DNA of 64,000 bases from Enterobacteria phage T6. Below the pieces are notes generated by a model, which searched no databases, was not told the origin of the DNA, and was given only the letters and a program-made list of their open reading frames with translations. Positions 23,922 to 41,397 of this stretch are shown piece after piece. The position numbers and the translations under genes were made by a program. Location: sequence record MH550421; one strand, given 5' to 3'. How positions within the stretch are numbered: the stretch's first letter is position 1; each line of letters begins with the position of its first letter.

Positions 23922-23925
23922 CAAT

Positions 23926-23943
23926 GGGGACCGAAAGGTCCCC
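23926..23943. terminator. Bidirectional stem-loop between convergent genes 54 and the alt-distal ORF
   Basis: GGGGACC-GAAA-GGUCCCC hairpin flanked by A/T runs on both sides. Confidence 0.6.
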
Positions 23944-23949
23944 ATATTT

Positions 23950-24240
23950 TTATTTACGGAATGAAATGAAAGCAGAAACTGAAGCAACTAAACTGTCTTC
24001 AATATAAACTTCAATTTTTACCGGAGCTTCTGACTCAAATTTACCTGTTACTACACCCTGAAAAATACTTTCAGTTTGTTCTGGCTTTGAAAAATTTTCA
24101 GAAGGAAAAATTCCGAACTTTTTATCTGTTCCAAAAATTTTAATAAATTCATCGTAAACTGCTTCATTAAAAGCATTATCAGCAGGAATAACGCCTTCAA
24201 CTACAAGTTCTTGACCTAAAAAGCGCAAAGAAGATTTCAT
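23950..24240 (-). CDS. Hypothetical protein (alt.-3-like)
   Basis: 96-aa ORF downstream of Alt paralogs; GAGGAA Shine-Dalgarno. Confidence 0.5.
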   Translation of the reverse strand: MKSSLRFLGQELVVEGVIPADNAFNEAVYDEFIKIFGTDKKFGIFPSENFSKPEQTESIFQGVVTGKFESEAPVKIEVYIEDSLVASVSAFISFRK

Positions 24241-24301
24241 TTTGTGTTCCTCATGTTATGTCAGTAAGACTATTATAACACAACATAAGGAACTTGTAAA
24301 C
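24241..24301 (-). promoter_or_regulatory. Candidate early promoter (GTTTACA-N17-TATAAT) with leader for the alt.-3-like gene
   Basis: Minus strand GTTTACAAGTTCCTTATGTTGTGTTATAATAGTCTTACTGACATAACATGAGGAACACAAAATG; matches T4 early promoter consensus. Confidence 0.55.
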
Positions 24302-26358
24302 TACATTTTGAACTTTTTAGACATTCCGTTGATGTTAACCAAAGAAGCTAAGATTTGAGAAACTTCGTTTTCCTCTTCTTTTGATTCTTCTACAAGGAAT
24401 TGATTAAATCCAGTCATTGGACGAACTTCACCAGTTTCCATTAGATGGTCTCCATCATATACTGATTCTTCTAATTGTTCAGAAGGAGGAACGATTGTAC
24501 CTTCGATTAGATACTTGTTATAAGCAGTTTCTTTCATAAAGTACGTACTTACTTTATTAATCTTCAGTAAAATTCCACGCGGTAGAATAACTTCAGCTTC
24601 TGATGGAAATCCTGTTAAATGACCTGGAACGATAACTTTGATTCGCTCAGCTCCTTTAATTACCATACCCACGCTAGTTTCAGCATCTTCATTAGCATAT
24701 GTAGAATGACTACCCATATGCATCAAATCTTCTGCATCAACAGAACCTTCTCCTTCGCCAGAAAATACTTCACCGGAATCATCTAGAGCCATATAGTTTT
24801 TACCATGCTCACCGAAGATATTCGGTTTAAGCGATGTAGATACGAAGTTCTTGAAATAGAACATTTTGTTTTCAATGTTATGACGCAAAGTTTTAAAGGT
24901 AACTTCTTGTCCACGATAAAGCGTAGTTCCTGGAGGAAGAACTGAACCTTTAGCGAATGCAGAATCCAACGTCTCGATGTGCTTAATGGCACGTTCCATA
25001 TATTCTTCACGGGTAGAATCTGGTTTACCCAAAAGGAACGAGTTCATTTCAACATATGAATCTGCACAATAATCTTCAATTACATCAGATTCAGCTTGAG
25101 TTAATCCTTTTGGAGTTACTTCAGTACTTGCATATTCATACGCCTGAGCAGCAGATTCATTAATCAATTTATAAATGCCATTCATTACAAATTGAATAAT
25201 AGCTGTCTTTTCATCTGGCGTGGCTTTAGAACCTTTAACTAAATCATTAATAATTTTCTTAATAACATCAAAGCTATTAGAAATATTAATGTCAGCAAGA
25301 TCGCTTAAAATTTTATCAGTTTTATAATCAAAGAATTCTTTATTCTTTAAATATTCTTGAGAACCTTGATATGTTATATCGCTCTGCAGCTTGATAGATG
25401 GATCACGTAAACGCGCATGGGCCAATGCGATATGATTTCGGAAGTTTTCTAGTTCATAATCGCTAGATTTAAAACGAGAAGCACTCCTCATACCACCGAT
25501 AGCTCCTTTGCCGAAGTTTGAACCAATCTGGATAACGCCAGAGTTCATCGGACCTTCTGCTTTATATACCGGAACTTTAGATTCAAACTCTTGATATTTC
25601 TTGGCAGCGAAGCTATCACCCTGAAGTGAAGCATCAACAGTAGAATATTGAGCTTGTGCTGCTAATCGACGACTAATTTTAGTTTTCTGAATAACAGCTT
25701 GGTCCGTGCGCTTATCATTTTCTAAAGCAATAGAAGCAGCAACAGCGACAGCTTTAGGAACAGCATTACCTGTTTTAACGTCTACATAAACATCACCAAC
25801 CTTTGATTCAACTTTTGTGAATAACTCAGTTGAAATAGGAGGTACACCTGGAATGTCTTCTAAATTGGCATTTTTACGGTAAACCATAATATATGCGTAC
25901 TTTTTATCATAATCCCAGATTTCCTTTAAAAGAACATATCGACCTGCTCCTTTAATACGTACTAAACGGTCAGCAATAACTTGCATTTGACGAGCAGCGC
26001 CATTTGTTTTACTTTTTAGTACGCGGAATAAGCATGCGTCGATTTTATACTGTTTCATTGTTTGAAGAGCAGTATCAAAAACAGCATTAATGACGCCAAT
26101 TGGATTTCCACCCAAGTTTTTAAGCTTGACTAACGATAATTTCTCGTTGACACCTATCATTACGATATGCATCATTTTATCGCCTGGCTTAACGTTTTTA
26201 TTTGTATCACCGCCAGAGGTGTATGTACAAAATCTAAATCCAGGAAGCACACTTTCTTCGCCGGCTTGAATAGCAAAAATTTGTGGTATTTTATGCTTAG
26301 GATTTAAGTTAACAACCGGCGCCGAAGCGCCGTCAAATAATTCTGTAATAAGTTCCAT
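24301..26358 (-). CDS. Alt-family mono-ADP-ribosyltransferase paralog
   Basis: 685 aa; N-terminal about 230 aa colinear with the adjacent Alt (MELITELFD..., KIDAC..., RYVLLKE.WDYDKKYAYI); C-terminal R/S/E-x-E motifs (YRGQ, FVSTSL, SEAEVILPRG). Confidence 0.75.
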   Translation of the reverse strand: MELITELFDGASAPVVNLNPKHKIPQIFAIQAGEESVLPGFRFCTYTSGGDTNKNVKPGDKMMHIVMIGVNEKLSLVKLKNLGGNPIGVINAVFDTALQTMKQYKIDACLFRVLKSKTNGAARQMQVIADRLVRIKGAGRYVLLKEIWDYDKKYAYIMVYRKNANLEDIPGVPPISTELFTKVESKVGDVYVDVKTGNAVPKAVAVAASIALENDKRTDQAVIQKTKISRRLAAQAQYSTVDASLQGDSFAAKKYQEFESKVPVYKAEGPMNSGVIQIGSNFGKGAIGGMRSASRFKSSDYELENFRNHIALAHARLRDPSIKLQSDITYQGSQEYLKNKEFFDYKTDKILSDLADINISNSFDVIKKIINDLVKGSKATPDEKTAIIQFVMNGIYKLINESAAQAYEYASTEVTPKGLTQAESDVIEDYCADSYVEMNSFLLGKPDSTREEYMERAIKHIETLDSAFAKGSVLPPGTTLYRGQEVTFKTLRHNIENKMFYFKNFVSTSLKPNIFGEHGKNYMALDDSGEVFSGEGEGSVDAEDLMHMGSHSTYANEDAETSVGMVIKGAERIKVIVPGHLTGFPSEAEVILPRGILLKINKVSTYFMKETAYNKYLIEGTIVPPSEQLEESVYDGDHLMETGEVRPMTGFNQFLVEESKEEENEVSQILASLVNINGMSKKFKM

Positions 26359-26361
26359 GAT

Positions 26362-28455
26362 TTATCCTTGAACGAACTTGTAAGGCATGTTTGTAATATC
26401 TATGCAAGACGCAATAATTCCAAGAGATGATTCTACTTTCTGTTTAACATTTGATGAAACAAATGATGCAAAGTCAACTCTGTCTTCTATTTCAATATCA
26501 CCTGTCATTGCAACTACTTCACCGGTTTCCATTAAACAGTCTCCGTCATAGATTACCGATTCGGTGAGTTCTTCTGTGGTCATAACTTCAGCTTGAATGA
26601 GTTTTGTATTGTTAGATGTTGTTCCATCATTATTAGAAGCATCAGTTATTTTATTAACTTTGACCATTAATCCGCGCGGTAGAATAACTTCAGCTTCTGT
26701 TGCTATTCCGAGACTTCCTGGATATACAACATTAACTTTATGAGCTCCATCAATTGCCCATCCTATTTGAACTTTAACGTATTCAGGATTTTCTTTATAC
26801 GCTCTTATTTCGTTTGGATTAATAGTTATTCCTTCTTCATTTTTATCAACTGTTAATTCATTGCGAGCTTCTGGTTCTAAAAGACCAATACCAGCATGTG
26901 TAATTCCAAAACGTCCAAAAATGATAGGAGTTAAAGAAGTAGATACAAAATTTCTGAAATAGAATACTTTATTTTTAACTAGCGCTTCGTATATAGGAGC
27001 AGTCATACTTTGAGCACGATAAACTGTAATGCCTTCCGGTATGCGGTCACCATTTTCAAAAGCTGAATCTAAATTATTTATAGCAGATTCAATTTCTTTT
27101 TCACTCATTACATCATATCGTTCTGGATTGTAACGACCTAAAAGAAGATTATTAATGTCTGTATATCCTGAACCACAATACTCTCTAATACCGCGCTTTT
27201 GCGATGGAGTATATTTAGAACCATCACGGGCAATAGTAATATCAATCATTGGGCCTGCACCAATTCCAGAAAAACTATAAATCATTCGTTTGAGGAATTT
27301 AGTTTTTGCTGCATTCCAGGCATTTTTAGTTATTTCTCCCCAGACTTCATCTGGTTGCCCTTTACGAGTTTTATTATGTTTATCAAGCCAATTATCTTTA
27401 TATTCTTCAAAGAATTGATTGACAGCTGCTGCGTATTTCTCTAAACATTTTATTGAAGTAGTTGGTTCATTTTTGATCGCATTAAGAATTACATCTTTAA
27501 TTTTTTCGGAAACTTCATTAACCTCACTTTTTGAAAAGAATTTATAGTCATAGTGAAGTTCATTCGCAGTTCCTTCGGCAATAATTTTTGCTGCCTTAGT
27601 TTTAGAAGCTAATGAATTAATTCCAAGCTTCATTTCTTCTGCTTCGGGAATTAAAGGAGCAGTAGCAGGTTTATTGAAATTAGCTGCGGTAGATTCATAC
27701 TTCTGGAATAATTCACTTTCAAATCTAGAAGATTCCAATGACTGACTTTGTGCAATTGCTCTACGGGAAATTTTAACTTTAACGATTACAGCTTGGTCAG
27801 AACGTTTATCATTTTCTTGTGCAATAGATGCTGCAATTGCCTCATTTTTAGTTACTTGAGCTCCAGTATCTTTATTGATATAAACATCACCGACCTTCGA
27901 TTCAACCTTAGTAAAGAGCTCGGTACTAATTTCCGGAACTCCTGGAATGTCTTCTAGTGATACATTTTTGCGATGTATAAGAATATATGCATACTTTTTA
28001 TCATAATCCCAGAGTTCCTTAAGAAGGACGTATCTTCCACCTGAACGACTACGGATAAGTCTATCAGCAATAACTTGAATTTGTCGAGCTTGGCCAGCAG
28101 TTTTAGACTTAAGAATACGAAGCATGCAGGCATCAATTTTATACTGACGCATTGTTTGCATTGCAACAGTAAAAACTGAATTGATATAATTAATTGGGCT
28201 TGGTCCAAGACCTTTTAATTTAGCAATTGAACCTTTAGCAGTTAATGTAAAAGGAACAATATGCATCATTTTATCGCCCATTTTTAAATCGCGATTAGTA
28301 TCACCTCCGGATGTATAGGTACATAAACGAAAGCCTGGTTGTTCAATTGCATCATCAACATGAACTGAAAAAATTTGCGGTATTTTCTTCTTTGGATTTA
28401 AGTTTGTAATTGGAAGAGTAGTATCTTCGTCAAATAATTCTGTAATGAGTTCCAT
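26362..28455 (-). CDS. alt: Alt ADP-ribosyltransferase (packaged internal head protein)
   Basis: 697 aa from second Met; MELITELFDEDTTLPITNLNPKKKIPQIF...; ART motifs YRAQ, FVSTSL, TEAEVILPRG; directly downstream of gene 30. Confidence 0.85.
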   Translation of the reverse strand: MELITELFDEDTTLPITNLNPKKKIPQIFSVHVDDAIEQPGFRLCTYTSGGDTNRDLKMGDKMMHIVPFTLTAKGSIAKLKGLGPSPINYINSVFTVAMQTMRQYKIDACMLRILKSKTAGQARQIQVIADRLIRSRSGGRYVLLKELWDYDKKYAYILIHRKNVSLEDIPGVPEISTELFTKVESKVGDVYINKDTGAQVTKNEAIAASIAQENDKRSDQAVIVKVKISRRAIAQSQSLESSRFESELFQKYESTAANFNKPATAPLIPEAEEMKLGINSLASKTKAAKIIAEGTANELHYDYKFFSKSEVNEVSEKIKDVILNAIKNEPTTSIKCLEKYAAAVNQFFEEYKDNWLDKHNKTRKGQPDEVWGEITKNAWNAAKTKFLKRMIYSFSGIGAGPMIDITIARDGSKYTPSQKRGIREYCGSGYTDINNLLLGRYNPERYDVMSEKEIESAINNLDSAFENGDRIPEGITVYRAQSMTAPIYEALVKNKVFYFRNFVSTSLTPIIFGRFGITHAGIGLLEPEARNELTVDKNEEGITINPNEIRAYKENPEYVKVQIGWAIDGAHKVNVVYPGSLGIATEAEVILPRGLMVKVNKITDASNNDGTTSNNTKLIQAEVMTTEELTESVIYDGDCLMETGEVVAMTGDIEIEDRVDFASFVSSNVKQKVESSLGIIASCIDITNMPYKFVQG

Positions 28456-28478
28456 CATATCCTCTCTAGTGTTTATTC

Positions 28479-28486
28479 TATTTATA
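28479..28486 (-). promoter_or_regulatory. Candidate late promoter for alt
   Basis: TATAAATA on minus strand about 20 nt upstream of alt start. Confidence 0.55.
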
Positions 28487-28492
28487 AAATTA

Positions 28493-28508
28493 AAGGCCCG
28501 AAGGCCTT
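28493..28508 (-). terminator. Stem-loop AAGGCC-CGAA-GGCCUU upstream of alt late promoter
   Basis: 6-bp stem overlapping stop of upstream 62-aa ORF, followed by A/U-rich tract. Confidence 0.45.
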
Positions 28509-28696
28509 TAATAATCTAGTGGTAAGAGAGTACGGTATATTTCAAACTTTGGACCTTTTTCATAGGCATCAAATGTTTCTGTAAATTTATTATAAGCATA
28601 TGCATCTACAAATTCGAGAACGACTTGTGATACAGAAGTAGAAACATCTCCACCTTCTTTTTGAGCTACGACAACTGTTTCTAAGTAAGCTTTCAT
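28508..28696 (-). CDS. Hypothetical small protein between gene 30 and alt
   Basis: 62-aa ORF, start overlaps gene 30 stop. Confidence 0.45.
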   Translation of the reverse strand: MKAYLETVVVAQKEGGDVSTSVSQVVLEFVDAYAYNKFTETFDAYEKGPKFEIYRTLLPLDY

Positions 28697-30156
28697 AGAC
28701 CAGTTACCTCATGAAAATCACCAAATACATCTTCGAATGTATTAGCTTTAGTTTTATCTTCACGCAAACGAATCGCAATTGGAAGAAATAATTTAACGTA
28801 ATCAGTGCGGCCATCAGATTTTAACCAACCGTTGCATTCGCACTCTAGAATTTTTCCAATATAATAATTTTGGTTTTCCATAATGCGAGTACGGTCAAGT
28901 TCATGTGATTTTACGCCGGCTTTATCTTTTAAGCCTGAACCAGCATTTACCTTAATTTTTCCACACTCTGACTCAAGAATAAATCCACCTGCTTTAGTAG
29001 GGTCTTTACGGTGAGGATAAATTCCTACAATTTTTAAATCAACATCAATTACTTCTTTAAATTTATAGAGATTTTTCGAACGAGCATTTTCCCATAATCC
29101 ATCGATATTTTTGAGAATAATACCTTCAAGACCTTGGTCAATATACTTTTTATAAATTACCTTAGCTTCATCTAGGTTATTTACTACCTGGTTTTCAATT
29201 AAAATTACTTTATCATAGCCTGATGTCATTTGTTCTAATTTAGAAAAACGTACATCATATTTCAAGCGAAATGCTGGAAGACCGTATACTTCTACCAACG
29301 GGACATAATCCCAGACCTGAAACTTCATGCATTGTGCTTCTTTTTCAGAAATGGTTCCCTTTAAAGATTTATTGGCGATGCCATTAGATGCAGTACGTGA
29401 TTCAGCTACTTCTGTGAAGTCTTTAACTTTACTGTTTTCAGGATGAGCATCAAAAAGAAAATCTAGGCCTTCTGGCTCCTTTTTAACTTGCTCATGGTAT
29501 ACCAATTCGCCATCAATTAACACGCCTTCTGGATGAATCTGGCGAGCTTCAGCGGTCATTTTGATTAACTCTTCTTTAAGAAGATCTAATCCTAGATATT
29601 CATTACCAGCTCGTGATAAAAGACGAACATCATCTAATTCATCACCTCTGACTTCAGCAAAGCACCGAGCCCCATCAGCTTTTAACTGGGCAAAGGCTGG
29701 AAATTTAATATTCTTATTAATGCCTTTTTCATCATAAGAACTTGCAAGCATTTGAGGTTGTTCAGGAATTAAACCTGGCCAAACTTTGTTTGCAATAGAT
29801 ACCGAAGCACCGCATTCAAGGTCTCGCATCATCACTCGACGCAAAACTTCAACATCATCTTTTTTACCATCGGTGATGTATCCAGTTAATTCCTCAATTG
29901 CCGCATTTCCAGTCAATTTCCGAGTAGCTAACGTGAATTCAATGAAGTCAAGCATATCAGTAAGAGTCAACATTCCAAAACTCTGGGTAGCAATACCAGG
30001 TTTAGGCCATTTCTTGATATAATACTGTAACCCACGAGAATAAGTCAGACGATATACCCGTTTAAGCAATTCATTATCTTTATTCTTTTCAAGAATTGCT
30101 TGTTTTTGTTTAGTTGAACCAATAGATGCTATTTCGTTCAGAATTTTAAGAATCAT
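28693..30156 (-). CDS. 30: ATP-dependent DNA ligase gp30
   Basis: 487 aa; MILKILNEIASIGSTKQKQAILEKNKDNELLKRVYRLTYSRGLQYY...; adenylation motif KADGAR. Confidence 0.95.
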   Translation of the reverse strand: MILKILNEIASIGSTKQKQAILEKNKDNELLKRVYRLTYSRGLQYYIKKWPKPGIATQSFGMLTLTDMLDFIEFTLATRKLTGNAAIEELTGYITDGKKDDVEVLRRVMMRDLECGASVSIANKVWPGLIPEQPQMLASSYDEKGINKNIKFPAFAQLKADGARCFAEVRGDELDDVRLLSRAGNEYLGLDLLKEELIKMTAEARQIHPEGVLIDGELVYHEQVKKEPEGLDFLFDAHPENSKVKDFTEVAESRTASNGIANKSLKGTISEKEAQCMKFQVWDYVPLVEVYGLPAFRLKYDVRFSKLEQMTSGYDKVILIENQVVNNLDEAKVIYKKYIDQGLEGIILKNIDGLWENARSKNLYKFKEVIDVDLKIVGIYPHRKDPTKAGGFILESECGKIKVNAGSGLKDKAGVKSHELDRTRIMENQNYYIGKILECECNGWLKSDGRTDYVKLFLPIAIRLREDKTKANTFEDVFGDFHEVTGL

Positions 30157-36789: not shown

Positions 36790-36828
36790 GGTAGAGCTAT
36801 AATATCACAACTCTACCGTAAAGTAAAC
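36790..36828 (-). promoter_or_regulatory. Candidate early promoter (GTTTACT-N17-TATTAT) with -10 enclosed by inverted repeat
   Basis: Arms GGTAGAG / CTCTACC flank the -10; upstream of ORF 36241..36768. Confidence 0.45.
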
Positions 36829-38901: not shown

Positions 38902-39251
38902 TTAGAAAGGTCCTGGATGTCTTCTGCGAACTTGTTGAAGGAGTTGTTGATTTGTTTTTCAACCAATCCTGGCTTATGAGCCACCACATCCGCCTTCTTT
39001 GCGTCTTTGCGCAGTTTTTCATTTTCACGCTCAATAGCAGCAATTGCCTCACGATTTTTATTATTCATCGCATCAATATAATTATACTGAATTCGCAAAT
39101 TATTTAATGCTAAAGCGTTTTCATTGGCTGTTTTTGTAATTTCAGTAACTGATGTTTCTAATCTTTCTACCTTATTTTTTAAAATAATAGATGTTCCGCC
39201 CAATGCTATTACAATTAATAGCAAACCTGCTGTCGTATTACTTAATTGCAT
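38898..39251 (-). CDS. Inner-membrane spanin (Rz equivalent)
   Basis: 117 aa; N-terminal hydrophobic helix GLLLIVIALGGTSIIL then long predicted coiled coil. Confidence 0.6.
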   Translation of the reverse strand: MQLSNTTAGLLLIVIALGGTSIILKNKVERLETSVTEITKTANENALALNNLRIQYNYIDAMNNKNREAIAAIERENEKLRKDAKKADVVAHKPGLVEKQINNSFNKFAEDIQDLSK

Positions 39252-39748
39252 AAAGTTTTAATAACCTCTATAATATCGTCTTGAGAAAGACCGTTAATTA
39301 AAATATGATGTTCAGCTGGAGATTTAGAAATTTTAAAGCATGCCTCAACATCTTCTGCCATATCTGATGCACTACGATTTGGATTACTAATTCCAAGACG
39401 ATGCTTTCCAGTCAAAGGATTAACGATGATATAGCATTTACAACTATTGATATGAACATTAGGTTGAGTCTGATTAATAAATACATCACAATCATATTTC
39501 GCAAGCTGATTTTCTAAAAAGACTTTCATCTCTTCAACCGCATCAGGAAGCATATCACGGGCTTGCTCAAGACGACGATTTCGATATTCTTTAATGGTCG
39601 TTTTCCGCTTGACTTGCTTAGCTAAATCTTTCTTAAGATCGGTGATATATCCAACTCGACGGTTTCCTTTGAATACAGAAATCCCATCTGTAGTATCACC
39701 GTATGCTTCAACGACCATTTCAGTAGTAATAAGCTGCAAATCCATCAT
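39242..39748 (-). CDS. alc: Alc, inhibitor of host transcription
   Basis: 168-aa ORF at conserved position between spanins and rnlA. Confidence 0.75.
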   Translation of the reverse strand: MMDLQLITTEMVVEAYGDTTDGISVFKGNRRVGYITDLKKDLAKQVKRKTTIKEYRNRRLEQARDMLPDAVEEMKVFLENQLAKYDCDVFINQTQPNVHINSCKCYIIVNPLTGKHRLGISNPNRSASDMAEDVEACFKISKSPAEHHILINGLSQDDIIEVIKTLCN

Positions 39749-39809
39749 AAAGTCCTCATGTTATGTCAGTAAGACTACTGTAACACAACAAGAGGGACTT
39801 GTAAACAGC
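39749..39809 (-). promoter_or_regulatory. Candidate early promoter with leader for alc (paralogous to element at 24241..24301)
   Basis: Minus strand GTTTACAAGTCCCTCTTGTTGTGTTACAGTAGTCTTACTGACATAACATGAGGACTTTATG; about 90 percent identical to the alt.-3 upstream element. Confidence 0.5.

Positions 39810-41397
<1,588 letters not shown>

Follow-up and report, generated by a model that had tools for sequence, protein, structure and literature searches.

The window analysed here is a stretch of 64,000 nucleotides from Enterobacteria phage T6, in which each position equals the T6 position (NC_054907 / AP018814) minus 95,996; over 801 bases surrounding the cassette the identity with T6 is 100%. On its minus strand, positions 24301 to 24238 hold a compact early-promoter and leader cassette, copy 1, whose upstream neighbour is the second of two Alt paralogues and whose downstream neighbour is alt.-3. 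Genes 54 and 48 lie on the plus strand and face this alt/alt.-3 unit. The features of the region are:

28479-28486, minus strand: late-promoter motif TATAAATA, 21 nt upstream of the first alt gene (motif search)
26362-28458, minus strand: first alt gene
24301-26358, minus strand: second Alt-like ADP-ribosyltransferase paralogue, whose mRNA would run on through the cassette (ORF and Pfam)
24295-24301, minus strand: -35 element GTTTACA of the T-even early (sigma-70) type, with TTTACA at 24300-24295 (promoter scan)
24273-24293, minus strand: hairpin 5' arm GUUCCUUAUGUUGUGUUAUAA, made of the promoter spacer and most of the -10 box (MFE structure)
24272-24280, minus strand: extended -10 element TGTTATAAT, with TATAAT at 24277-24272 (promoter scan)
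24265, minus strand: predicted transcription start, an A 7 nt past the -10 box (standard -10-to-start spacing)
24246-24267, minus strand: hairpin 3' arm UUACUGACAUAACAUGAGGAAC, which includes the Shine-Dalgarno (SD) GAGGA at 24252-24248 (MFE structure)
23950-24240, minus strand: alt.-3 homologue, 96 aa, served by copy 1 (Pfam DUF5498, E = 5e-64; T4 annotation)
23924-23945, both strands: bidirectional intrinsic terminator with a 9-bp GC-rich stem, 3' of alt.-3 and gene 54, at the end of the unit (terminator scan)

The two tandem Alt-like ADP-ribosyltransferase genes of T6 are both full length (685 aa at 24301-26358 and 698 aa at 26362-28458, both on the minus strand) and carry repeat families D1, D5 and D12; in the T4 record the second Alt-like gene survives merely as the fragments alt.-1 and alt.-2.

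From 24301 the minus strand reads GTTTACA AGTTCCTTATGTTGTGT TATAAT AGTCTTACTGACATAACATGAGGAAC ACAAA ATG, preceded by AAAAAGTTCAAAATG. The G at 24301 is shared, being both the first base of GTTTACA and the last base of the TAG stop of the Alt paralogue, and the leader closes with GAGGA-N7-ATG, its ATG occupying 24240-24238. In the promoter scan TTTACA-17-TATAAT is an 11/12 sigma-70 match with a TG-extended -10 and the top site of the region; the GTTTACA-N17-TATAAT that the initial annotation reported upstream of an alt.-3-like gene is present on the minus strand exactly as quoted.

What happens to the SD in an RNA that arrives from upstream? The initial annotation described a 12-nt complementarity between the spacer and the segment covering the SD. 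The two segments, 24293-24282 (GTTCCTTATGTT) and 24257-24246 (AACATGAGGAAC), do pair at 12 of 12 positions (11 Watson-Crick, one G-U), but the stem is really longer, at 21 pairs: in the ViennaRNA structure 24293-24273 pairs with 24267-24246, with one bulge and a 5-nt loop, enclosing most of the -10 box and the expected start site. All folding energies given here are equilibrium predictions. The 81-nt read-through segment folds at -24.1 kcal/mol compared with -10.9 +/- 2.7 for 200 dinucleotide shuffles (z = -4.98, no shuffle equal), and the hairpin is retained in a 140-nt context. The duplex between spacer and leader reaches -23.5 kcal/mol against -6.9 +/- 2.3 for 2000 spacer shuffles, again with none equal.

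The 5' arm is found only in RNA arriving from upstream. A transcript from the cassette's own promoter would lack it because the predicted start at 24265 falls within the 3' arm, and the leader that begins 7 nt past the -10 box folds at only -2.2 kcal/mol, no better than shuffles (z = +0.4). Folding the read-through and promoter-initiated leaders, which the initial annotation had proposed as a check, thus gives -24.1 versus -2.2 kcal/mol for copy 1. Its two further suppositions hold as well. Promoter-initiated RNA was expected to leave the SD free, and with the 5' arm encoded ahead of the predicted start the predicted cost of opening GAGGA is 1.8 kcal/mol. Read-through RNA was expected to hide it, and with the 3' arm over GAGGA the cost rises to 13.7 kcal/mol (partition functions); there GAGGA is fully paired, with a mean unpaired probability of 0.001. 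The structural steps of that earlier reading are all supported, and on them we infer the transcription start, the existence of the read-through RNA, the translational effect and the biological purpose.

The second copy upstream of alc and its relatives

The initial annotation also called the cassette duplicated, and the repeat search bears this out: as repeat family D7, 24248-24301 matches 39753-39806 with 91% identity over 54 nt. The likeness runs from the -35 element to GAGGA, and the flanks are unrelated. Copy 2 serves alc:

39810-40934, minus strand: rnlA (gene 63, RNA ligase 1), whose stop codon ends 9 nt ahead of the copy 2 5' arm
39746-39806, minus strand: copy 2, GTTTACA-N17-TACAGT, upstream of alc, with the SD GAGGA at 39757-39753 and the ATG at 39748-39746 (repeat search and folding)
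39242-39748, minus strand: alc, host transcription inhibitor (Pfam ALC), served by copy 2

Its promoter, TTTACA-17-TACAGT, is a 9/12 match in the promoter scan. The hairpin pairs 39800-39776 with 39771-39750 at -22.1 kcal/mol (z = -2.96) and has two imperfections, a C bulge and a U.U mismatch. Opening the region from the SD to AUG+6 would cost 12.4 kcal/mol in read-through RNA versus 3.7 in the promoter-initiated leader, which folds at -4.8 kcal/mol, no better than shuffles. T4 also has both cassettes, and there they differ by 1 nt in 53, which points to conversion between the loci.

Is the pairing of the arms maintained beyond T-even phages so closely related? The alc upstream regions were compared in 14 phages, covering 13 groups besides Tequatrovirus (12 named genera and Acinetobacter phage Ac42); each genus was represented by one or two phages, taken from the GenBank set. 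IMG/VR scans for the cassette returned only close Tequatrovirus relatives and two unrelated promoters. In Tequatrovirus and eight further groups, nine Tevenvirinae genera in all, the spacer arm directly following TTTACA matches the SD region of its own cassette, and its sequence differs in each. The arms form 7-15 pairs in Tequatro-, Dhaka-, Gelderland-, Karam-, Roskilde-, Kanagawa-, Marfa- and Bragavirus and in Klebsiella phage Shark_ER15. Besides those of T6, the arms at alc are:

Dhakavirus: 5' arm TCTCCTCAT, 3' arm ATGAGGAGA
Gelderlandvirus: 5' arm TCTCCGTTT, 3' arm AAACGGAGA
Karamvirus: 5' arm TCTCCATTTGGTT, 3' arm AACCAAATGGAGA
Klebsiella phage Shark_ER15: 5' arm TCCTCATCAG, 3' arm CTGATGAGGA
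Bragavirus: 5' arm CCCTCTCGTTTTT, 3' arm AAAAATGAGAGG
Kanagawavirus: 5' arm TCCCATTTTGTT, 3' arm AACAAAATGGAGA
Marfavirus: 5' arm CCTCGTTTGTT, 3' arm AACAAACGAGG
Roskildevirus: 5' arm TTCTCCA, 3' arm TGGAGAA

A column-based co-variation test, RNAalifold on a MAFFT alignment, returned no pairs because, from one genus to the next, the arms shift by 1-3 nt with respect to the -35 element and the ATG. A comparison of cognate and non-cognate duplexes and a pair table anchored on the SD were used in its place. Spacer and leader of the same genus form duplexes with a mean of -15.9 kcal/mol versus -8.7 for spacer and leader of different genera, and none of 100,000 permutations reached the cognate mean. 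In the pair table, several helix positions carry three to four standard pair types; the SD core lies within the helix in all 12 sequences, and the 3' arm covers it in 10/10 alc-type cassettes from nine genera. Judged from sequence comparison, the arm pairing at alc is under selection, since the arms differ among nine genera and yet match their own partner. RNA is the natural level at which it would act because the SD always forms one of the arms. Chance complementarity as an account of the hairpin is ruled out by the shuffle and permutation tests.

Not every genus has this arrangement at alc. Mosigvirus carries a different cassette, an early promoter with a small hairpin inside the spacer and without SD pairing, Gaprivervirus RZ has no promoter at the alc position, and in Acinetobacter phage Ac42 and two Aeromonas phages the region is differently organised. 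In these Aeromonas phages (50AhydR13PP and avDM5) the TCCAT that pairs with the alc SD, ATGGAG, stands just past the -10 box, outside the spacer, and the predicted start would fall within or beside this 5' arm; this may be the same gate on the SD, differently positioned. A further observation concerns the alc leaders of the nine genera, in which the first ~15 nt of the predicted transcript keep CTTAC/CTAC-AC-TAAC (CTTACTGACATAAC in T4 and T6; window 39771-39758). This motif sits in the hairpin loop or upper stem, the arms around it vary, and it may be a start-site or leader signal.

At alt.-3 the comparison takes another turn. In Dhaka-, Mosig-, Gapriver-, Marfa-, Karam- and Kanagawavirus the equivalent position also holds an early promoter, without SD pairing; its spacer folds on itself into a small hairpin, for example CCACAaggaTGTGG or GCACaaggaaGTGC. 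Upstream of alt.-3 or alc, this second promoter type is conserved as a hairpin of 4-6 pairs wholly within the 17-nt spacer, with the stems CCACA/TGTGG, GCAC/GTGC, CACA/TGTG or ACGT/ACGT according to genus and a loop that is usually AAGGA or TGGA(A), itself SD-like. A deeply conserved regulatory hairpin at alt.-3 is ruled out by the different promoter type that these six genera have there.

Mosigvirus has the intra-spacer type at both loci and Tequatrovirus the alc type at both. The alt.-3 copy is probably the derived one because the alt.-3 of the six other genera lacks the SD-masking hairpin. In Tequatrovirus it most likely came from alc by conversion, over a tract limited by the -35 and SD motifs that both loci share. 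On the simplest history, the ancestral alc cassette was of the SD-masking type, the Tequatrovirus lineage gained a copy of it at alt.-3, and in Mosigvirus the replacement went the other way. The local sequence fits around the new copy in different ways. The alt.-3 context reads GGAAC where alc has GGACTT; T4 alt.-3 retains the alc-type arm GTCCC, leaving a C.A mismatch with GGAAC, and the T6 arm GTTCC matches the local GGAAC, which restores a perfect helix. The hairpin is dispensable in evolution, being absent from Mosigvirus alc and from the alt.-3 of six genera.

Known cassettes and gates

The T6 cassette recalls the promoter-early stem-loop (PeSL) cassettes of T4-like phages. As described by Arbiol et al. 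2010 (PMC2839356) and Comeau et al. 2014 (PMC4122927), these begin where the upstream gene stops, in A-rich sequence, and continue with a strong early promoter of the sigma-70 type (TTTACW-N17-TAYWAT in the T4/PST pair) that has a stem-loop within or over it, followed by an SD and an ATG. Five positional subclasses are distinguished, of which the commonest place the stem-loop 'between -35 and -10' or 'overlapping the -10 box'. PeSLs are repeated in the genome, are exchanged between loci and mediate gene shuffling, and these authors take the stem-loop to be a transcription terminator or attenuator and a recombination site. T6 shares the sigma-70-like early promoter (11/12 in copy 1, 9/12 in copy 2); its copy 1 comes directly after a TAG stop in an A/T-rich stretch, has a 21-pair stem overlapping the -10 box and ends with SD and start codon; the cassette is repeated (91%) and its types have been swapped between alc and alt.-3 across genera. 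At the level of sequence it agrees with a PeSL on every point. The difference lies in the placing of the arms. These authors draw the PST/T4 stem-loop just upstream of the promoter, whereas in T6 the 5' arm is the spacer and the 3' arm the SD. Neither PMC4122927 nor the part of PMC2839356 that was searched describes an SD in the 3' arm of the stem-loop or sequestration of the SD.

Masking of this kind is known from another set of T4 genes. In e, soc, 49, I-TevI/II/III and segB the ribosome-binding site is hidden on long transcripts and the promoter lies in the hairpin (PMC3014915, PMC2988022); the promoters embedded in this way are late ones (gp55, TATAAATA) and 'they are all late genes' (PMC2988022). 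The T6 cassette has the same build, as its SD is predicted to be buried in a stable helix on long transcripts and its promoter overlies the 5' arm, which the predicted own transcript lacks. It differs in that the promoter within the hairpin is of the sigma-70 early type and serves early genes, and the motif search found no TATAAATA late-promoter motif at the cassette site. The T6 gate would thus pass early RNA and block later RNA because its internal promoter is of the early type, making the cassette, on this model, the converse of the gates that restrict e, soc, 49 and I-TevI to late expression. The initial annotation had seen here the logic of T4 lysozyme early versus late mRNA. The architecture does correspond, but the timing is reversed: the early promoter sits in the hairpin and the later read-through RNAs would be masked.

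With a Rho-independent terminator the cassette shares a stable, GC-containing hairpin that stands where the upstream gene ends; it differs in having no U-run and in its 5-nt loop on a 21-pair stem (20-30 nt loops in other genera). An intrinsic terminator is ruled out, as the tails ACACAAAAUG and UUAUGAUGG hold no U-run and the terminator scan calls neither site. A known RNA family is ruled out as well, Rfam giving 0 matches at the gathering score over the whole window. The literature searched describes no SD-masking hairpin at alc or alt.-3 and no SD masking embedded in an early promoter; older subscription literature could contain either. Masking by an early promoter at alc and alt.-3 is a variant absent from the PeSL and late-gate descriptions found, and we would class the cassette as an early-promoter cassette of the PeSL type with a stem that would act as an anti-SD gate.

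Are such stems confined to these two genes? In the window, the complementarity between spacer and leader is significant at five of the seven GTTTAC-type promoters just 5' of an ORF (p <= 0.0065 each). The stems reach the SD at alt.-3, alc and gene 30.8, and cover the start-site region only at gene 30.7 and at the Pe133295 homologue (36828). The cassette of the gene 30.8 homologue, at 33265-33206 on the minus strand, has the architecture of the alc and alt.-3 cassettes in unrelated sequence; its spacer TTCCTTTGTG pairs with the SD region CACAAACAAAGGAG at -11.3 kcal/mol (p = 0.0065). At 36828-36770 (T4 Pe133295 homologue) and 32873-32810 (gene 30.7), both on the minus strand, 9-pair stems join the spacer and the first bases past the -10 box (GGTAGAGTT/AGCTCTACC and GGTACAGG/CCTGTACC, respectively). 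The SD lies outside both, so the masking model leaves these two unexplained. SD masking cannot be the sole role of such stems because the stems at 36828 and 32873 are equally significant. It is one form of a broader tendency to lay stems across early promoters, which leaves room for a role in transcription, in RNA fate or in DNA, whether rival or additional.

Read-through, timing and the proposed gate

Where would the masked RNA come from? At alt.-3, the late-promoter motif TATAAATA at 28486-28479 is the likely source of late read-through RNA. The terminator scan found no minus-strand terminator-like site in 24200-28700, and read-through RNA should exist since no terminator separates the late promoter of alt from the cassette. 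At alc, MotA-box-like motifs were found upstream of rnlA. In the T4 time series (PMC9697503, supplementary files 4 and 6), alt.-3 and alc are classed as early RNA and early protein, alt as late, and rnlA as early RNA and late protein; the 'early protein' class in T4 omics is compatible with some late translation, the absence of which is unproven. An early gene right behind a late gene, without a terminator between them, is the arrangement that the masking model requires.

On balance, it seems rather likely that a PeSL-type early-promoter/leader cassette, whose spacer doubles as an anti-Shine-Dalgarno, gates the translation of alt.-3 and alc. RNA entering the cassette from upstream (late alt mRNA at alt.-3, nrd-denA-rnlA middle or late mRNA at alc) would pair its spacer-encoded 5' arm with the SD-containing 3' arm, and the resulting 21-pair hairpin of copy 1 would bar 30S subunits from the SD. 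The cassette's own sigma-70 promoter would start transcription ~7 nt past the -10 box, within the 3' arm, and yield RNA without the 5' arm and with the SD free. Translation of alt.-3 and alc would in this way be tied to the immediate-early promoter alone and would end when early promoters are shut off, despite later read-through.

The same stem could instead act on transcription or on the upstream mRNA. As a PeSL-type insulator it would weaken or end read-through transcription, or else stabilise the 3' end of the upstream message or mark where that message is processed, and the inclusion of the SD would be incidental. We regard this as possible but unlikely. The published PeSL model proposes a terminator or attenuator role, and one RB49 stem-loop cut lacZ in a transcriptional fusion as strongly as rrnB T1 (both from PMC2839356). 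It is also favoured by the five of seven early cassettes with significant spacer-leader stems, two of which (36828 and 32873) do not touch the SD, and by the alt.-3 promoters of six other genera, whose co-varying stem lies within the spacer only. However, neither hairpin is followed by a U-run and the terminator scan is blank at both sites; the 3' arm lies on the SD core in 10/10 alc-type cassettes, although a stabiliser could use any leader sequence; and in either case the own promoter must still make the alt.-3 and alc RNAs. Might the hairpin couple translation rather than prevent it? Hairpin-mediated translational coupling is well established in other operons and in RNA phages, which counts in favour of a scheme whereby the hairpin stops independent initiation and ribosomes ending the upstream gene melt the 5' arm. 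The output of alt.-3 or alc from read-through RNA would then rise and fall with translation of the upstream gene. In every genus the upstream stop codon ends merely 6-11 nt ahead of the 5' arm, and in several it overlaps the -35 element. A terminating ribosome, however, should reach only about 5 nt past the stop codon, so that no more than one or two of the 14-21 pairs, at the start of the helix, would be melted and the residual helix would still cover the SD ~45 nt downstream. With the stop at or beyond this reach, upstream translation should leave the helix essentially intact, and the classing of T4 alt.-3 as early and alt as late also speaks against coupling, which we consider quite improbable.

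An explanation in DNA looks very unlikely to us. On this view the inverted repeat on either side of the -10 box would work as a cruciform or hairpin for promoter opening or shut-off, as a recombination hot spot, or as a quasi-palindrome kept by templated repair, and RNA structure would have no role. It is true that the cassettes move or convert between loci (the T4 copies 1 nt apart in 53, the Tequatrovirus and Mosigvirus types) and that PeSLs are documented as recombination sites (PMC2839356). Yet recombination requires similarity between copies and not complementarity inside one, arms separated by ~25-30 nt, with the -10 box in the loop between them, make a poor cruciform, and the SD, at which the 3' arm invariably ends, is meaningful in RNA only.

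If the anti-SD gate is real, what would it mean? T4 is a textbook case of temporal gene control, and the masking logic combined with an early promoter predicts early-only translation of alt.-3 and alc. The 'promoter inside the hairpin' device would then work in the opposite direction too, in an early version. An immediate-early gene would be translationally independent of later transcription through it, which would explain how early alt.-3 can stand directly behind late alt without a terminator. The PeSL stem-loop would gain a concrete, testable function, and a cassette moving between loci would bring its promoter and translational insulation along. Extended Alt.-3 variants allow T4 to escape the CmdTAC defence system (PMC11618068). 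Dosage and timing of both products should be biologically relevant because Alc stops host transcription and extended Alt.-3 evades CmdTAC.

A far broader reading, which we hold to be a long shot, would see in inverted repeats on both sides of the -10 box a feature built into T-even early promoters in general, and the cis-element behind their rapid shut-off and insulation. The repeat could, for example, be extruded by read-through or replication or be recognised by a structure-specific factor, and the SD-covering subset (alc, alt.-3 and 30.8) would add a translational lock. Such repeats in five of seven early cassettes of the window support it, as does a review that describes the mechanism of early-promoter shut-off as incompletely understood (PMC3014915).

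Two minor observations concern other promoters of this kind. The T6 cassette at 36828 (minus strand) matches the T4 Pe133295 region over 63 nt only, and the T6 ORF that follows it (175 aa) has no DNA-level match to T4 cd.2; this appears to be a gene replacement with the promoter cassette at its edge, in line with the PeSL shuffling model. In the environmental phage IMGVR_UViG_3300021197_001376, on the minus strand from ~656, an unrelated promoter shares the start region TAGTCTTACT, and its spacer arm TAAGTAAGA is complementary to the first transcribed bases TCTTACTTA.
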